The translations under genes were made by a program, and so were the position numbers. A DNA stretch of 32,000 bases from Wigglesworthia glossinidia endosymbiont of Glossina brevipalpis (GTDB taxonomy: Bacteria > Pseudomonadota > Gammaproteobacteria > Enterobacterales > Enterobacteriaceae), in assembly GCA_000008885.1 (NCBI GenBank), contig BA000021.3, positions 180,001 through 212,000 of the forward strand, given 5' to 3'. A model generated the notes under the pieces. That model did not search any database. It saw nothing but the letters and a program-made list of their open reading frames with translations, and was not told where the DNA came from. Shown piece by piece: positions 9,024-25,596 of this stretch; the stretch's first letter is position 1; every line of letters starts with the position of its first letter.

Positions 9024-9446
9024 AAATATATATCTCCAAAAATTAAAATAAATAATTATATTAAAAGTAAAGCAAGTACAAATATTTTATTTGATAAAAA
9101 TAAATATTGAATTTTTATTTAAAAATTTTTATTTAATTTATTTATACATAAAACATATTATTAATAATATAATTTATAATTAATGTTTATTATGAAAATA
9201 ACATAATTAAATATTTTTGTAAAAAGCTTTTATAAGTATAAAATATATATTTTATAAAATATTAAAATTAATAAATTTTATATTTAAATATTTTTAATAA
9301 TATTATTAATTATAAAATAGAAAATTAAAAAATATAAAATGAAACATTTAAAAAATTTTTAATACTTATATATGGTGTGTTATATTTTATAAAAAATGAT
9401 TTTTGTTTTAATGAAGTTTAAAAATTTTTAAATATTAAATATATTT

Positions 9447-10418
9447 ATGTTAAATTTTAAAAAATTATCAATAATAATACCTGTATACAACGAACAAGAT
9501 AGTTTAATTGAACTAATTAAACGTACTGTTAATACTTGTTCTAAATTAAAAATAAAATATGAAATAATAATAATAGATGATGGAAGTAACGATAAATCTA
9601 TAAATATTTTAGAAAAAGAAGCTTTAAAACAAAATAGCAAAATAGTAGCAATTTTTTTAAAAAAAAATTATGGGCAACACTCTGCAATTATGGCTGGATT
9701 TAAGCATTCTAGTGGAGACCTAGTTATTACTATGGATGCAGATTTACAAAATCCTCCAGAAGAAATTCCTAAGTTAATTTTAAATGCTGAAAAAGGATAT
9801 GATGTAATAGGAACTTTTAGACAGAATAGAAAAGATAATTGGTTCAGAAAAATTAGCTCTAGATTAATTAATATTATAATTCAAATAGTTATTGGAAAAA
9901 GCATGAAAGATTATGGATGTATGCTTCGTGCTTACAATAGAAATATAATAAATTCTATTTTAGAATATAACAAAAAAAATATTTTTATTCCAATTTTAGC
10001 AAATACATTATCTAAAAATATAATTGAAATACCAGTGTTACATTATGAAAGAGAATTTGGGTGTTCTAAATATAATCTTATTAAATTAATTAAATTAATA
10101 TATGATTTATTCTTTTGTATTTCTTTTAATTTAATAAAAAAAAACAAAATGTTCAATATTTTTATTATATTAATATTTTTGGCTGTTTTAATGTCAATAG
10201 TATTTTTTTTTATTTTTTTTCTTAAAATAAAATTAAATATTTTTTATAAAATATTATTTATCCCAATTATAATAACTTTATTCTTAATAAAATCATTTAT
10301 AATAATAATATTAAAAATACTTATTGATATCTTTTTTGTCAAAGCTAAAAAAAATTCTATTTATTATATAAATAAAATTATTAAAAATAATTTTTCTAAA
10401 AAAAAGGATGTTACATGA
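9447..10418 (+). CDS. arnC: Undecaprenyl-phosphate 4-deoxy-4-formamido-L-arabinose transferase
   Basis: 323 aa. GT2 N-terminus IPVYNEQ.SL.ELI.RT, then [31 protein letters not shown] and [10 protein letters not shown], as in E. coli ArnC. Two C-terminal TM helices. Its stop overlaps the arnA start (ATGA at 10415-10418). Confidence 0.93.
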
Positions 10419-12379
10419 AAGTAATTGTTTTTGCTTATCATGAAATTGGATATATAGGGTTATCTTGTTTGATAAAGCTTGGATTTAAAGTTTTAAGTGT
10501 TATAACTCATATAGATGATCATGCTTCTGAAAAAATATTTTTTAGTTCTGTAAAGAAAAAATCTTTAAAACATAAAATACCAGTATTTTATCCAAAAAAT
10601 ATAAATAATTTAAAATGGATTGACTATTTATCAAAATTAAAACCAGATATAATTTTTTCTTTTTATTATAGAAAGATTTTAAGCGAAGATATTTTAAAAA
10701 TACCAAAATTAGGATCATTTAATTTACACGGATCATTGTTGCCAAAATATAGAGGATGCTCTCCTTTGAATTGGGTTTTAATAAATGGAGAAAAAACAAC
10801 AGGAGTTACATTACATAGAATGACAAAAAAAATAGATCATGGATCTATATTGTCTCAATACTCAATAAAGATAGAAGAAAAAGATACCTCCAAATCTTTA
10901 TATAAAAAATTATGTTATGCATCTATGTATATTTTGAATAAAACATTACCTATGATTTTAAAAAATAAAATAAATGAAATTGATTGTACAGATGATTTTT
11001 CTAGTTATTTTCATAAAAGATATCCAAAAGATGGATTAATAGATTGGAATCAATCGGCTAATAATATATATAATTTAATAAGAGCTTTAACAAAACCCTG
11101 GCCTGGAGCATTTAGTTATTTATTTGATAAAAAAATAATTATTTGGAAATCAAAAATAAGTTTTGAAAGTTATAAAACTCCTGGAACAATATTAAATTTT
11201 AATCCATTAATTATATCTTGCAAAAAAAAATCATTAGAAATTTTATCTGCTCAATACACAGAATGTAATATTCTTAACAAAAGAAATATTGAAAATATAT
11301 CAAGAATTAAAGGAAAAAAACTAATTATTAAAAATATAAAATCTTTTAAAAATTTAAAAAAAATATTAATACTAGGAGTTAATGGATTCATTGGATATCA
11401 TATTACAAATTTATTATTGAAATATAATAATTACAAAATATACGGTATAGATATAAAAAATAATTTAGTTAAAAGCTTTATAGGAAACGAAAAATTTTGT
11501 TTTATCAAAGGAGATATAAAACAATATTATAACTGGGTAAAGAAAAAGATAAAAAAATGCGATATTATTTTGCCTTTAATTGCTATAGCTAGACCAATGC
11601 AGTATATAAAAAATCCATTAAAAGTTTTTAAAATTGATTTTGAAGAAAATTTGAAAATTATACGTTATTGCGTAAAATATAAAAAAAGGATAATATTTCC
11701 TTCTACATCAGAAGTATATGGAATGTGCAAAGATGATTATTTTGACGAAGAAAATTCAAATTTAGTTACAGGTGCTATAAAAAATCAAAGATGGATTTAC
11801 TCTTCTTCAAAACAACTGTTGGATAGAATAATATGGGCTTATGGTGTAAAAAATAATTTAAATTTTACCATATTTAGACCTTTTAATTGGATAGGACCAG
11901 GCTTAGATGATTTTAAAATAGCTGAAAAACAAAACGCAAGAGTTACAACTCAAATTATTTTTAATTTAATTAATGGACTTCCTGTTACTATTGTTAATAA
12001 TGGAAATCAAAAAAGATGCTTTACAGATATTGATGATGGAATAGAAGCTTTGTTCGAAATAATAAAAAATAAAAATAATAAATGTAATAAAAAAATTATT
12101 AATATAGGAAATCCTCATAATGAATATACAATAATGCAATTAACGAAAATTATAATAAATATTATTTATTCTAATAATAGAAATTATAATTTTCCAAAAT
12201 TTTCTGGTTTTAATATGTTAAGTGGAACAAATTATTATGGAGAAGGCTATCAAGATATAGATCGTAGAAAACCAAATATTGATATTGCTAAAAAATTATT
12301 AAATTGGACACCAAAAACTAAAATAAGAATTACTTTAAGAAAAATAATAAATTTTTTTATTAATAATAATACATCATAA
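10415..12379 (+). CDS. arnA: Bifunctional UDP-glucuronate oxidative decarboxylase / UDP-Ara4N formyltransferase
   Basis: 654 aa. Formyltransferase motif [13 protein letters not shown] plus a conserved Asp (IDHGSI). The C-terminal SDR half has [57 protein letters not shown] and GYQD...RKP. AAGGA Shine-Dalgarno motif 6 nt upstream. Confidence 0.95.
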
Positions 12380-12389
12380 CTACATTAAT

Positions 12390-13297
12390 ATGAAAAAAAA
12401 AAATATGTTGCAATAAGAATTGACGTAGATACTTTAATGGGGACTAAGTTAGGTGTACCTAACCTATGGGAAATTTTAAACAAAAAAAAAATAAAAGCAA
12501 CTTTTTTTTTTACTGTTGGCCCTGATAATATGGGAAGACATTTTTGGAGATTAATAAAACCAAAATTTTTATTTAAAATGTTTAGAATAAATCCTTTTAA
12601 AATTTATGGGTTAAACATATTAAGATCTGGATTTATAGGAAAAGGTAAAAATATAGGTAAAATATGTAAAAATGAAATAAAATCTGCATCAAAAGACCAT
12701 GAAATCGGATTGCATGCATGGGATCATTTTTCTTGGCAAACTTGGATAAATATGTTCAGTAAAAAAAAAATTATTAAACATATAAACCTAGGTAAAAATG
12801 CTTTGCAACACATCATAAAATATCCAGTTACATGCTTTGCTTCTCCAGGCTGGAGAACAAACGAATATGTATTACGTACATTAAAAAATAATTTTAATTT
12901 TTCATATAACAGTGACTGCAGAGGAAGCAATTTATTTTTTCCATATTTAGGTGATGGTAAAATTGGATCTTTGCAAATACCAGTGACACTTCCAACGTTT
13001 GACGAAGTTATTAACATAAAAACCACGATTAAAAAATATAATAGTTTTATTATAAAATTAATTAAAACACAATTAAATTTTTCTGTATATACTATTCACG
13101 CTGAAATAGAAGGAATGAAATATAAAAAAGAATTCGAAGAGTTTTTAAACATAGCAATAAACGAAGGAATTAATTTTTGCAGATTAAAAGATTTAATACC
13201 TAAAGAAATTGAAAATATACCAATATATAAAATAAATCATAAAACAATACCAGGAAGAGATGGATGGATTGCATATCAACAAAAAATAATAAAATAA
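12390..13297 (+). CDS. arnD: 4-deoxy-4-formamido-L-arabinose-phosphoundecaprenol deformylase ArnD; start codon and gene body are in different frames across an A11 tract
   Basis: The track ORF 12437..13297 (286 aa) matches E. coli ArnD (FFF.VGPDNMGRH.WRL.KP.FL.KM, HE.GLHAWDH, QIPVTLPT.DEV, YTIHAE.EG). The same frame upstream (12404-12436) encodes YVAIRIDVDTL, the conserved ArnD N-terminus, but has no start codon. ATG 12390 followed by A11 lies one frame off. Confidence 0.8.
12393..12403 (+). repeat. A11 homopolymer at the arnD frame break
   Basis: Counted directly: ATG(12390-12392) + 11 A + TATG. A tract of 12 or 9 A would join the ATG to the ArnD frame. Confidence 0.9.
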
Positions 13298-14952
13298 ATA
13301 AAATTAAATTTTCAATAACAATAATTGCATTTATTTTGTTGTATTATTTAATACCACTAAACTATAGGGATTTATGGCAACCAGATGAAACTAGATATGC
13401 AGAAATTAGCAGAGAGATGTTGCAAAATAAAAATTGGAGTATTCCATATTTATTGGATATAAGATATTTTGAGAAACCAATTTTTGGATATTGGATAAAT
13501 AGCATAAGTCAATTTTTTTTTGGTCATAATAATTTTTCAGTTAGATTTGGATCTTTTTTATTTACTTTATTTAGTGCTAATTTAATTTATTTATTTTCTA
13601 AAAAAATATGGAAAAATAAAATTTTATCTTTAAATTCAGTAATAATATTTTTATCCATTTTATTAGTATATATCATAGGTACATATTCTGTATTAGATTC
13701 AATAATATCTTTTTGGATTAATTTATCTATGATTTCGTTTTGGTTAGCAAGTACTTCAAAAGTTAAAAAATATAAAATAAAAAATTATATTATACTCGGA
13801 ATATCTATTGGTATAGGTTTTATAACAAAAGGATTTATATCTTTATTAATTCCTTTCATTAGCATTTTTATTTGGTTATTTTTAACAAAAATAAATATTA
13901 ATAAAACTATAATTCATTGTTTTTTTTCATTATTAATTTCTATTTTAATAATTTTCCCATGGATTTACAAAATATCTTATTTAGAGAAAGATTTTATTAG
14001 ATATTTTATTTTTATAGAGCATATACAAAGGTTTATTGGAGAAAATGCTCAACACAAATCTCCTTTTTGGTATTACTTTCCAATATTTATTATCGGATGT
14101 TTGCCTTGGTCTGGATTTTTATTTAGCACGTTAAATCTTGCTTGGAACACAAGAAAAAATAAAAAAATAGAATTTTATCTTTTACTGTGGATAATAGTTC
14201 AATTTTGTTTTTTTAGTATTTCTAAAGGAAAACTACCAACATATATTTTGCCTTGTTTTTTCCCTTTATCTATATTAATAGCAAAAAATATAGAAAAATG
14301 CAATTTAAAAAATAAAAAAAAATTGTTAAAAATAAATTCTATAATTAATACAATTGTGGGATCAACTTTATTGATTTTTATAATTTTGCATGAAAAATAT
14401 AAATTTTTTGGATGTTCTTTATATAATAAAAATGAATATTATAAACTTATATTATGCATATTTAGTATTTTTGTATGGATTTTTTTAAATTTATGTATAA
14501 TTTTTAATGATTTTAAATTTTGGAGAATTACATCTCTTAGTATTATTGGAATAGCATTTTTATTTGGATTATATGTTCCAGAAAAAATAATTTACGCTAA
14601 ACAACCACAATTATTTATTAAAGAAGTTTTTGATGATTTAGAATCTTCAGATTTTATTTTTTCTAACAACATAGGTTTATCTACTGCTATATCTTGGGAA
14701 ATAAAAAAGAATAATATTTTTATTTTTGAAAACAAAGGAGAACTAGAATATGGATTAAGTTATTTAGATTCTAAACATAGATTCATAAAAAAAGAAGATT
14801 TTAAAAATTGGTTGTCAAAAAATAAAGAAAAAAAAATATCTCTTGTTATGTTATTACCAGATAAACATTATAATTGGAAAAAATTTAATGTTCCAGAAAC
14901 AAAAAAGTTTTTTCAACATGAAAGATTAATTTTATTAAAATATAATTTTTAA
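13264..14952 (+). CDS. arnT: Undecaprenyl phosphate-alpha-4-amino-4-deoxy-L-arabinose arabinosyl transferase
   Basis: 562 aa polytopic membrane protein. LWQPDETRYAEISREM, RYFEKPI.GYWINSI, TKGF, FWYY.P, SKGKLPTYILPCF and GEL.YGL.Y.D...RF are collinear with E. coli ArnT. The ATG overlaps the arnD 3' end by 34 nt. Confidence 0.93.
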   Translation: MDCISTKNNKINKIKFSITIIAFILLYYLIPLNYRDLWQPDETRYAEISREMLQNKNWSIPYLLDIRYFEKPIFGYWINSISQFFFGHNNFSVRFGSFLFTLFSANLIYLFSKKIWKNKILSLNSVIIFLSILLVYIIGTYSVLDSIISFWINLSMISFWLASTSKVKKYKIKNYIILGISIGIGFITKGFISLLIPFISIFIWLFLTKININKTIIHCFFSLLISILIIFPWIYKISYLEKDFIRYFIFIEHIQRFIGENAQHKSPFWYYFPIFIIGCLPWSGFLFSTLNLAWNTRKNKKIEFYLLLWIIVQFCFFSISKGKLPTYILPCFFPLSILIAKNIEKCNLKNKKKLLKINSIINTIVGSTLLIFIILHEKYKFFGCSLYNKNEYYKLILCIFSIFVWIFLNLCIIFNDFKFWRITSLSIIGIAFLFGLYVPEKIIYAKQPQLFIKEVFDDLESSDFIFSNNIGLSTAISWEIKKNNIFIFENKGELEYGLSYLDSKHRFIKKEDFKNWLSKNKEKKISLVMLLPDKHYNWKKFNVPETKKFFQHERLILLKYNF

Positions 14953-14966
14953 TTAAATAAAAAGAT

Positions 14967-15579
14967 TTAATTTAATTTAAATAATTTTATATTAGTCCAT
15001 TTATTTAATATTTTTTTTGTAAAAAGTATTCCGTCTCTGCTTATAGAAGAAAATGTTAATACTTCTATATATATATTTTTTGTATGAGTTGTTTTTTCAA
15101 TATATTTTTTGAACAATGATAATTTTTTTTTTCTTTTTTCAAAATTTATTTTATCGGATTTGCTCAGTAATATTAAAACTGGAATTTTTAAATTAAAAGA
15201 TAAATATATTAATTTTTCATTAAATTCTGATACTGATCTTCTTATATCTTCTAATATAATTAGAATTTTTAAAGATTTGCGTGATTTAAAATAATCATCT
15301 AATAAATATTTAATTTTACTTTTTTTTTTTAGAAATTTTAGAATATCCAAATCCAGGTAAATCTATTATTCTTAATTTTTTATTCATGATAAACACATTA
15401 ATGAAATTTGTTCTCCCAGGTTTTTTACTGCTTATAGATATTTTTTTCTTATCGAATAAAGCGTTTATAGCCTTTGATTTTCCAGAATTAGAACGGCCAA
15501 AAAAAGCTATTTCTAATCCATTATCTTTTGGAAGATTAAATAAATTATTTGCACTTAACAAAAATTTTATATTATTCAT
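14967..15579 (-). pseudogene. engB: Ribosome-biogenesis GTPase EngB/YihA, split into two overlapping ORFs by a frameshift in an A11 tract (formally a pseudogene; may be rescued by slippage)
   Basis: ORF 15316..15579 carries G1 [16 protein letters not shown] and G3 DLPGFGY, then stops after KKKK. ORF 14967..15350 continues collinearly with E. coli EngB (..SLK.LIIL.DIR, then G4 LLSKSDK, then FSS). The two frames meet at the A11 tract (plus-strand T11, 15320-15330). Confidence 0.85.
15320..15330 (-). repeat. A11 homopolymer (T11 on the plus strand) at the engB frame break
   Basis: Counted directly. On the minus strand TCT + A11 + GTAA gives ...SKKKK*. A10 would read [15 protein letters not shown]..., which continues the EngB alignment. 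Confidence 0.9.
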
Positions 15580-17723: not shown

Positions 17724-18451
17724 TTAAAAATCTCCAAAATACATTTGTAAAATAGAAACTATTGATATTACGCTTGTTTCTGTTCTTAAAATTCTTGGAC
17801 CAAATTTAATCTTATTAAAATTATTTTTTTCTACATGAAATACTTCTTCTTTAGAAAGACCACCTTCTGGTCCAATCAATAAATTAATATTTTTTATTTT
17901 TTGATTTATTTCTTTTATTTTTTTTTCAGAATAAGGATCGGCATAAATTTTAAAAGAAGTGCTTTTTGTATCACACCATTTATATATGGATATTGGATCA
18001 TTTATTTTTAACAAAAAATTTCTTCCGCATTGCTGAGAAGATTGAATAATGATTTTTTCCCAACGATCAATTATTTTATTTAAATTTTTTTTATTTAAAA
18101 ATTCGTTGGAACGTGAAGAAAATAATGGAGTTAATGTATGTATTCCAAGCTCAACAGATTTTTGTACTAAAAAATCCATGCTTTTTTTATTACATAAAAC
18201 TTGCCCTAAATTTATTTTCAAAGTAGATTCGACATATTTGTGTATTTGATGCATTAAGAATATATATGTATTTTTATTTTTATATTTTAAAATTTTTCCT
18301 AGGAATTCTTTTTCTTTTCCATTAAATATCAAAACAAGCATTCCTTTTTTTTTTCTTAAAGAAAATCTTAAATGAGAAGTAGAATCTTCTGAAAGTAAAA
18401 TTATTTGTTTTTTTTTAATAAAAAATTAACATATATTCTAGGAATTTTCAT
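17724..18451 (-). CDS. rsmE: 16S rRNA (uracil1498-N3)-methyltransferase RsmE; the first 16 codons are out of frame with the body across an A9 tract
   Basis: The track ORF 17724..18341 matches E. coli RsmE from about residue 40 (LGQV....K..F..QKS.ELG....TPLFS, QCGRN, LLIGPEGGLS..E, GPR.LRTET). ATG 18451 encodes MKIPRIYV (E. coli MRIPRIYH) and stops at 18403..18401. The body frame is open from 18425. With one extra A the product is 242 aa, against 243 aa in E. coli. Confidence 0.85.
18408..18416 (-). repeat. A9 homopolymer (T9 on the plus strand) at the rsmE frame break
   Basis: Counted directly. Minus strand reads TTA TTA AAA AAA AAC AAA TAA. With A10 it reads ...LLKKKQIILLSEDSTSHLRFSLRKKKGMLVLIFNG, which is continuous with the main ORF. 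Confidence 0.9.
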
Positions 18452-23740: not shown

Positions 23741-25596
23741 ATGAAAAAAATAAATAAATATTTTAATAAACGTGAAACAGAATCAAAAATATTTTTGCAA
23801 AGAATAATGATATCTTTTTTTTTATTATATTTTTAACTGTGATATTAATTTCTAATCTATATTATCTTCAAATATTTTGTTTTTCTATGTATCAAACCAA
23901 ATCTAATGATAATCGAATAAAAATAATTTCTATTCCTCCATCAAGAGGCACTATTTCAGATAGAAACGGAAATTTATTAGCATTGAATCGTACTATTTAT
24001 CAATTAGAAATTAATTTAAAACAAGTTGAAAATATCGAAAAAACTATAAAAGAACTAAAATCAGTAGTTGACTTAAATCAATCAGATATTTTTTATTTTG
24101 AAAAAGAAAGAAAAAAATATAATTATTTAAATAAATTTTTAATAAAATCAAATCTTACAGATATTCAACATGCTAGGTTTTCTATAAATCAATATAGATT
24201 TCCTGGAGTGCATGTCAAAAATTATCAAACAAGGTATTATCCTTATGGAGAGGATATAGCACATGTAATTGGATATGTATCTCAAATAAGCAATAAAGAC
24301 ATGATATGCTTAAGTTACAACAAAGATCTTTTAAATTATTATAAAACAAAATCGGTAGGAAAAATAGGAATAGAAAAATTTTATGAAAAAAAATTACATG
24401 GACAACCTGGATTTAAAGAAGTAGAGGTAAACAGCAAAGGTAAAATAATAAGACAACTTAGATTTTTTCCTCCTCAACCAGGAAAAAATATAATATTAAC
24501 ATTAGATTTAAATATACAAAAATATATTAAAAATTTAATATCTTCAATTCGCGCAGCAGTAGTAGTTATAGATCCAAGAGACGGAGGAATATTAGCTTTG
24601 GTATCTAATCCAAGTTACGATCCTAATATATTTGTAAATGGAATTTCTAACAAAAAATATTTAGAATTATTAACAAATTTAGATCGTCCATTTATAAATA
24701 GAACAACACAAGGGACTTATCCTCCTGCTTCTACAATAAAGCCATATATTTTAATTTCTGCATTACATTCAGGAATAATTAATACAAACTTTTTTTTGTT
24801 TGATCCAGGTTGGTGGAAATTACCTGGATCAGAAAAAAAATATAGAGATTGGAAAAAATGGGGCCATGGTTATTTAAATATAACAAAAGCTATAGAAGAA
24901 TCTTCTGATACTTTTTTTTATCAAATTGCATATAATATGGGAATAGATAGGTTGTCAGAATGGATGAAAAAATTTGGATATGGAACATATACTGGTATTG
25001 ATATTTCAGAAGAAAGCATAGGTGTGATGCCGAATAGAGATTGGAAATTAAAATACATAAAAGATCCTTGGTATCAAGGAGATACAATTTCTGTAGGAAT
25101 AGGACAAGGATATTGGACAGCAACTCCTATTCAAATATCAAAATCATTAATGACACTAATAAATAATGGATTAGTAAAAAATCCTCATTTATTATACGGA
25201 ATTTTAGAAAAAGATAATAAATTTATTCCATACTTTCAATCTAAATATTTACAAATAGGAGACCCGAGATCTAATTTTTGGGAAATAGTAAAAAATGGAA
25301 TGTATGGAGTGGCAAATCATTCTAATGGAACAGCATATAAAAATTTTTATGATGCAAAATATAAAATAGCTGCTAAATCTGGAACAGCTCAATTATTTAG
25401 TTTACAGCCAAACGAAATATACGATCCTAAAAAATTGTCTACTCAATTTAAAGATCATAAACTGATGACTGCATTTGCTCCGTTTAATAACCCTACCGTA
25501 TGTATTGTAGTTATTTTAGAAAACGGCGGAGACTATCTTTCTGCTGGAGAAATTTCAAGAAAAATATTAGATTATATTTTATTAAAAAAATCATAA
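23741..25596 (+). CDS. mrdA: Peptidoglycan D,D-transpeptidase PBP2; the N-terminal cytoplasmic tail and first half of the membrane anchor are out of frame with the body (T9 tract)
   Basis: The track ORF (GTG 23839..25596) is collinear with E. coli PBP2 from inside the membrane anchor onward (NLY.LQI, NRIK..PI.PSRG.I.DRNG, STIKP, EESSDTFFYQ, KSGTAQ). ATG 23741 encodes MKKINKYFNKRETESKIFLQRIMISFFLLYF*, which is collinear with E. coli MKLQNSFRDYTAESALFVRRALVAFLGILLL. The frames differ by one nt. Confidence 0.88.
23815..23823 (+). repeat. T9 homopolymer at the mrdA frame break
   Basis: Counted directly (ATA TCT + T-run). With T10 the reading is ...RIMISFFFIIFLTVILISNLYYLQI, which gives one continuous TM helix. 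A nearby T5 run (23830-23834) is an alternative shift site. Confidence 0.8.

Follow-up and report, generated by a model that had tools for sequence, protein, structure and literature searches.

Can a protein still be made when its start codon is offset by one base from the frame that encodes the remainder of it? This question is raised by arnD of the Wigglesworthia glossinidia endosymbiont of Glossina brevipalpis, in which an ATG is followed by eleven adenines and then by a long ArnD reading frame in a different register. The gene lies in a stretch of 32,000 nucleotides (contig BA000021.3, positions 180,001 to 212,000, forward strand), called the window here, and its positions are given in window coordinates. 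The analysis suggests that arnD is a working gene, that one base has really been lost from it, and that the loss is made good by slippage of RNA polymerase or of the ribosome; this reading is considered somewhat better than evenly probable.

Organization of the arn locus

The genome under study (G000) comprises a 697,724 bp chromosome (C1) and a further 5,280 bp, with 22.5% G+C, and was compared with the assemblies of two Wigglesworthia congeners (G001 and G002). The genes arnC, arnA, arnD and arnT are contiguous in the window (Table 1), and the identical order, adjoining nadA, is found in both congeners. The arnC product scores below the strict NF007986 equivalog cut-off of 529 bits; the match is nevertheless end to end. 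The stop codon of arnA (TAA, 12377-12379) is followed 10 nt later by the ATG of arnD. Sequence inspection revealed no Shine-Dalgarno-like purine stretch upstream of this ATG, and promoter and terminator matches around arnD are no more frequent than expected by chance.

The first-pass annotation had described the ATG, the run of eleven A and the short product MKKKNMLQ* with its stop, and the sequence agrees with it exactly. It had also stated that the ArnD frame, although open from 12389, offers no ATG, GTG or TTG before 12437, which the codons confirm. The frame is opened by the TAA at 12386-12388 and reads YEKKKYVAIRIDVDTLMGTK... from 12389 up to the next stop at 13295-13297; ahead of 12437 it consists of TAT GAA AAA AAA AAA TAT GTT GCA ATA AGA ATT GAC GTA GAT ACT TTA. 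As none of these is an ATG, GTG or TTG, the open reading frame listing starts arnD at 12437.

No arnB, arnE or arnF was found in the flanks of the cluster (9024-9446 and 14953-14966) or in the genome, the search being a weak one for arnE and arnF. The sole DegT-type aminotransferase of the genome, encoded at C1:356800-357948 on the minus strand, is a WecE equivalog (564 bits) and scores 176 bits against the ArnB model, the cut-off of which is 631. WecE might act as a stand-in for the absent ArnB. The wecE gene itself begins with ATG and A11, in frame, and a UDP-sugar dehydrogenase gene is located at C1:428041.

Table 1. Features of the arn locus and conserved genes split at homopolymer runs in three Wigglesworthia assemblies
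Feature	Location	Strand	Remarks
arnC	window 9447-10418	+	intact, heads the arnC-arnA-arnD-arnT cluster; NCBIfam NF007986, 341 bits, E 4.9e-102
arnA	window 10415-12379	+	intact; matches all 649 positions of NCBIfam NF005998, 1083.7 bits
Full open ArnD frame	window 12389-13297	+	302 codons and stop; NF011923, 387 bits; match to PDB 8T0J
ATG	window 12390-12392	+	ancestral arnD start, now one base off the register of the gene body
Dead-end ORF MKKKNMLQ*	window 12390-12416	+	8 codons, product without a slip; TAA at 12414-12416
A11 homopolymer	window 12393-12403	+	site of the frame break, proposed slippage site
Start-less codons YVAIRIDVDTL	window 12404-12436	+	11 codons; ArnD beta-strand 1 and DVDT block
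ATG (Met)	window 12437-12439	+	first canonical start in the ArnD frame; start in the deposited annotation
arnT	window 13264-14952	+	intact, overlaps the 3' end of arnD; NCBIfam NF009784, 727 bits
engB/yihA split	window 15320-15330	-	ribosome-assembly GTPase; A11; end-to-end TIGR03598 match when joined
rsmE	window 18408-18416	-	A9; first ~39 codons in the other frame: MKIPRIYVNFLLKK, then QIILLSEDS...
mrdA (PBP2)	window 23815-23823	+	T9; first ~30 codons (MKKINKYF...ISFF) in the other frame
hemW split	G000:C1:82466		A9-A10 run; end-to-end NCBIfam match when joined
lolE split	G000:C1:109627		A9-A10 run; end-to-end NCBIfam match when joined
ubiE split	G000:C1:130237		A9-A10 run; end-to-end NCBIfam match when joined
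rlmE split	G000:C1:274449		A9-A10 run; end-to-end NCBIfam match when joined
trmD split	G000:C1:294194		A9-A10 run; end-to-end NCBIfam match when joined
amiC split	G000:C1:317238		A9-A10 run; end-to-end NCBIfam match when joined
pyrH split	G000:C1:453371		A9-A10 run; end-to-end NCBIfam match when joined
ung split	G000:C1:333717-333726	-	A10
ung split	G001:C10:51542-51551		A10
ung split	G002:C1:508546-508555		A10
dapF split	G001:C10:64077		A9-A11 run
amiC split	G001:C10:66947		A9-A11 run
recD split	G001:C10:67529		A9-A11 run
lpxK split	G001:C10:88536		A9-A11 run
lipB split	G001:C10:177194		A9-A11 run
zapE split	G001:C10:218375		A9-A11 run

The N-terminus of ArnD

The NF011923 profile (from its position 3) and the Salmonella ArnD of PDB entry 8T0J (from chain residue 4) both align with the open frame from the valine encoded at 12407, the match to 8T0J having an E value of 2.9e-85. 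A genome search found eight relatives, and in each of them x-V-G-[LI]-R-I-D-V-D-T follows right behind a short N-terminus. The block [VI]GLR[IV]DVDT recurs in 80/80 further orthologues, each of which begins 3 or 4 codons ahead of the valine and none of which starts downstream. DVDT itself is invariant in 88/88 orthologues, that is, the eight relatives and the 80 others.

Both congeners initiate arnD at TTG, reading MKKEKKVGIRIDVDT in G001 and MNNLKKVGLRIDVDT in G002, and both are in frame and devoid of a slippery A run at this place, so that the break is private to the genome under study. The distance from the start codon to the conserved GTT is 15 nt in both congeners and 14 nt here, which identifies ATG 12390 as the ancestral start, now one base out of register; its placement 14 nt before GTT, as judged from this alignment, is not due to chance. 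Addition of one A, or a -1 ribosomal slip, yields MKKKKYVAIRIDVDT, which aligns codon for codon with MKKEKKVGIRIDVDT. The earlier proposal that either 12 or 9 A would join the ATG to ArnD holds by arithmetic; A9 is nevertheless less likely than A12 as the in-frame state, because the spacing of the congeners and the codon alignment are reproduced by A12 alone.

The residue encoded at 12437 is R or K in the eight relatives and R, Q or S in the 80 other orthologues, and never M. This lineage-specific methionine may have been substituted by chance, or it may serve as a back-up start acquired after the break.

The annotated 286-residue form

Public protein collections, in which six alternative N-termini were looked up, contain the 286-aa form only. 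The curated ArnD equivalog cut-off of NF011923 is 382 bits. It is exceeded by the open frame from 12389, which reaches 387 bits (profile positions 3-294), and by ArnD of the two congeners, with 390.3 and 385.7 bits; the 286-aa form, matching positions 14-294, attains 368.3 bits and fails the cut-off. The 11 start-less codons contribute 18.7 bits to the score, and the first-pass assignment of these codons to the ArnD N-terminus holds. The Pfam NodB match begins at profile position 21 in the short form as against position 5 in the open frame, with loss of positions 5-20. The open frame contains RIDVDT as well as the NodB-like histidine motif HAWDH, the DVDT block being unlinked to a canonical start.

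An AlphaFold2 model (31 sequences, mean pLDDT 85.3, pTM 0.87) places the first beta-strand at residues 5-13 (KYVAIRIDV) and the first helix from residue 16 onwards; a start at residue 17, which is Met-12437, deletes the entire strand 1 and the DVD loop of this model. In NodB-type enzymes, catalytic and metal-binding Asp residues are located in the first conserved motif. A PDB search for classical NodB enzymes gave no match reaching the ArnD N-terminus, so that a catalytic role of D12 and D14 is argued from their position and invariance only. The loss of strand 1, DVDT and NodB positions 5-20 and the failed cut-off strengthen, without proving, the first-pass suggestion that a protein begun at 12437 has no activity; a form without the putative catalytic Asp residues would be expected to be inactive. 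The 286-aa public protein is unlikely to be the form used by the cell, and probably represents a mis-annotation of ArnD.

Integrity of the remaining gene

The 302 codons of the ArnD frame are stop-free at about 21% G+C and carry no second lesion; other A10 and A11 runs within arnD, such as that at 12482-12491, are in frame. The identity of ArnD to its two congeners (0.644 and 0.610) is close to that of ArnA (0.648 and 0.629), and the values for ArnC and ArnT are lower than those for ArnD. Identity to the outgroup is 0.455 here as compared to 0.466 and 0.452 for the congeners, which indicates that the arnD lineage has not accelerated. Where all eight of the remaining sequences agree, G000 deviates at 6/95 positions, each congener at 2/91 and one other reduced genome at 8/97; within the first 20 columns, 1/11 invariant positions is changed in G000, as in each congener. 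Stops, identity, invariant positions and the intact neighbours arnC, arnA and arnT give no sign of decay of arnD beyond the frameshift.

Poly(A) breaks in other genes and species

The chromosome holds 33 A/T 11-mers as against 15.5 expected from composition, and an A11 run is by itself unremarkable in it. On the sense strand, runs of A greatly outnumber those of T over the whole chromosome (86 vs 4 for 10-mers, 22 vs 1 for 11-mers). When the genome was scanned for long frames shifting at A/T runs, at least nine other conserved genes were found to be split at A9-A11. The joined halves of LolE, UbiE, TrmD, Ung, PyrH, EngB/YihA, HemW, RlmE and AmiC each give a single end-to-end profile match. The engB break is 2.9 kb from arnD and needs the removal of one A or the addition of two. 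Two more genes of the window have their first codons in another frame: the rsmE ORF (17724-18341) covers profile positions 40-241 of 243, and the mrdA ORF from 23839 covers positions 35-615 of 634.

A single 245-kb contig of G001 carries splits at A9-A11 in seven conserved genes, each being end to end once joined; amiC is broken in both G000 and G001, at different runs. The addition of one A, as in arnD, is required in 8/10 candidate splits of G000 and in 5/7 of G001, an excess which fits either a deletion bias of the DNA or selection for breaks mendable by insertion-type slippage.

All three species share one break in ung, the gene for uracil-DNA glycosylase: it lies in a common A10 run and needs +1 A in each of them, and the two halves of the gene are conserved at 56-62% identity. 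Since an error is unlikely to repeat this break in three assemblies, the ung split argues for rescue of breaks that need one more A in the genus. On this comparative evidence, ung looks like an ancient, maintained frameshift, and some rescue of poly(A) breaks probably works in Wigglesworthia. In the text available from Rio et al. 2012 (PMC3280448), the shared pseudogenes named are ftsK, nusB and nlpB, and ung is not among them; the same text gives 8 pseudogenes for this genome, and the splits found here are well above that number.

Proposed mechanism and alternative explanations

Under the preferred reading, arnD would once have consisted of ATG, four Lys codons (A12) and TAT GTT, from which one A was then lost. 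RNA polymerase could slip backwards on the T11 template and add one A in a fraction of the transcripts, and the RNA:DNA hybrid could re-pair anywhere in the 11-nt A:T run. As an alternative or additional route, the ribosome may slip -1 on the all-A codons, in which case an identical protein, MKKKKYVAIRIDVDT..., would be produced. Full-length ArnD would thus arise from a fraction of expression events, and the unslipped events would end after 8 codons at low cost. The reading supposes that the tract is truly A11 in the living bacterium and that slippage takes place there at a useful rate. No stimulatory RNA structure was detected downstream of the A11 (fold z = 0.06). With neither such a structure nor a Shine-Dalgarno-like stimulator nor conservation of the site, the predicted slippage is adventitious and has no programmed site.

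Published work on similar systems is consistent with such a mechanism. Insertions during transcription are reported as single matching bases in A/T runs, and they become exponentially more frequent as the runs lengthen to 11 nt (PMC5574713); for related symbionts, a share of 12-50% corrected transcripts has been published. Ribosomes are described as sliding on poly(A) in the available text of PMC4363877, and homopolymer-frameshifted genes have been treated as intact in Blochmannia (PMC3017870). On the other hand, Baranov et al. 2005 (PMC1088944) argued from run statistics that Wigglesworthia may be without transcriptional slippage; the argument is an indirect one, and the conserved ung break does not agree well with it.

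The tract may instead have been miscalled, the living genome carrying A12 and arnD being an ordinary intact gene that is broken in the deposited sequence alone. This is a serious possibility, although a doubtful one. Sequencing errors of this sort are most likely to fall in homopolymers, the A12 form is the exact congener-like reading, arnD shows no decay at all, and the break is confined to this assembly; in metagenome and genome collections, scans for the exact DNA pattern gave no second copy of the arnD tract. For the sister-species assembly, obtained by Sanger shotgun sequencing, the stated accuracy is less than 1 error per 10,000 bases, and a like bound, if it holds for this 0.7-Mb genome, would leave room for tens or dozens of homopolymer errors. 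Most long runs are in frame, however: 27/39 runs of at least 11 nt sit well inside intact ORFs, which indicates no wholesale homopolymer problem in the assembly. The assembly of another species bears a comparable load of splits, and the recurrence of the ung break at one run in three assemblies argues that at least some of the breaks are real. It is improbable, by comparison, that arnD is newly dead, or that only the inactive 286-aa protein is made, with the arn pathway being lost in the lineage. The lineage-specific break would agree with this, as would the failure to find a dedicated arnB, arnE or arnF where the only DegT aminotransferase is a WecE equivalog, the larger share of changed invariant positions in this genome than in either congener, and the turning of a conserved basic residue into the Met which is now the sole canonical start. 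Against this stand the 302 codons without a second lesion, the intact arnC, arnA and arnT, and rates equal to those of the neighbours and congeners. The congeners, moreover, have the same four-gene layout; if they too are without arnB, arnE and arnF, the incomplete operon predates the break. The genes trmD, lolE and engB are essential in E. coli, and since they share this kind of break here, such a break does not imply loss. Among slippage dependence, recent death and a miscalled tract, the three outcomes proposed in the first-pass annotation, the healthy gene, its displaced ancestral start, the many similar breaks and the shared ung break favour a functional arnD, by slippage or by a longer tract, over a dead one.

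Two further explanations were considered. Translation in the ArnD frame could begin at ATA 12413 or at ATT 12419, perhaps through re-initiation once the 8-codon ORF has ended, and so retain (R)IDVDT without slippage. Both codons are in frame just ahead of or inside the conserved block, and the dead-end ORF stops 2 nt before the ATT. However, E. coli initiates only very weakly at ATA or ATT, no ribosome-binding motif precedes these codons, most of beta-strand 1 (residues 5-13) would be lost, and the start position common to the 80 orthologues would be abandoned; such a start is barely credible. It is also very unlikely that selection maintains the A11 as a dosage limiter or stochastic switch, with ArnD made from slipped transcripts, by slipping ribosomes or from an A12 subpopulation among the chromosomes of the polyploid symbiont, and with slippage as a regular part of Wigglesworthia expression, at which the ung break, preserved while three species diverged, hints. 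If true, the switch would set the L-Ara4N share of lipid A and hence the response to tsetse antimicrobial peptides. The same lesion in housekeeping genes throughout the genome means that no gene-specific switch is needed to explain the arnD break.

Comparison with known systems

Tolerated or rescued poly(A) frameshifts in Blochmannia have been described by Wernegreen and colleagues, according to PMC3280448 and PMC3017870. In Buchnera aphidicola, poly(A)-frameshifted genes are rescued by transcriptional slippage, according to Tamas et al. 2008 as cited in the available text of PMC5009743. The present case resembles those of Buchnera and Blochmannia (Blochmannia vafer, PMC3017870) in several respects: the host genome is that of an AT-rich, reduced insect endosymbiont, a one-base indel lies in a coding stretch of 9-12 A, the gene is conserved and has no other defect, and several such genes occur per genome, some frameshifts being shared across species. 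The sequence features of this class, namely a break in an A/T run of at least about 9 nt within an otherwise intact conserved gene, are all present in arnD, where rescue is predicted. Unlike the Buchnera and Blochmannia cases, the arnD run occupies codons 2-5, so that the start codon is detached rather than the body split, and a downstream Met masks the break.

Within the genus, the frameshift 'pseudogenes' of Wigglesworthia morsitans are the nearest parallel. As far as the available text of Rio et al. 2012 (PMC3280448) goes, 6/11 of them carry only 1-2 indels and rescue at homopolymer tracts is suggested; the main text does not name arnD. Reliance of Wigglesworthia on slippage, as in Buchnera and Blochmannia, has thus been suggested previously and never measured for the genus; arnD, together with the other splits and ung, again suggests it. 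Poly(A) frameshifts of this kind are well known, and the by-products here are the probable mis-annotation of ArnD and the three-species ung frameshift.

A -1 frameshift of the dnaX type shares with arnD the all-A slippery stretch, re-pairing of tRNA-Lys in the -1 frame and a product equal to that of the +1 A mRNA. It differs in that arnD has no downstream structure, no upstream Shine-Dalgarno-like element and no conservation of the site in relatives. A programmed -1 site was therefore considered and set aside: the slippery A run is present, the fold score is at chance level (z = 0.06, as above) and the relatives are in frame. Phase-variable contingency loci of host-adapted bacteria have a homopolymer at the 5' end of genes for surface structures, and arnD, whose product modifies lipopolysaccharide, resembles them in the run right behind its start codon; unlike them, arnD is accompanied by the same lesion in housekeeping genes genome-wide, and it is known here from one sequence copy.

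For metabolic reconstructions of the envelope, arnD is best marked as 'frameshifted, probably expressed', or else the tract length should be fixed. The locus also illustrates a blind spot of annotation: where a homopolymer break falls in the first codons, gene callers choose the next Met, and the gene is missing from lists of pseudogenes.
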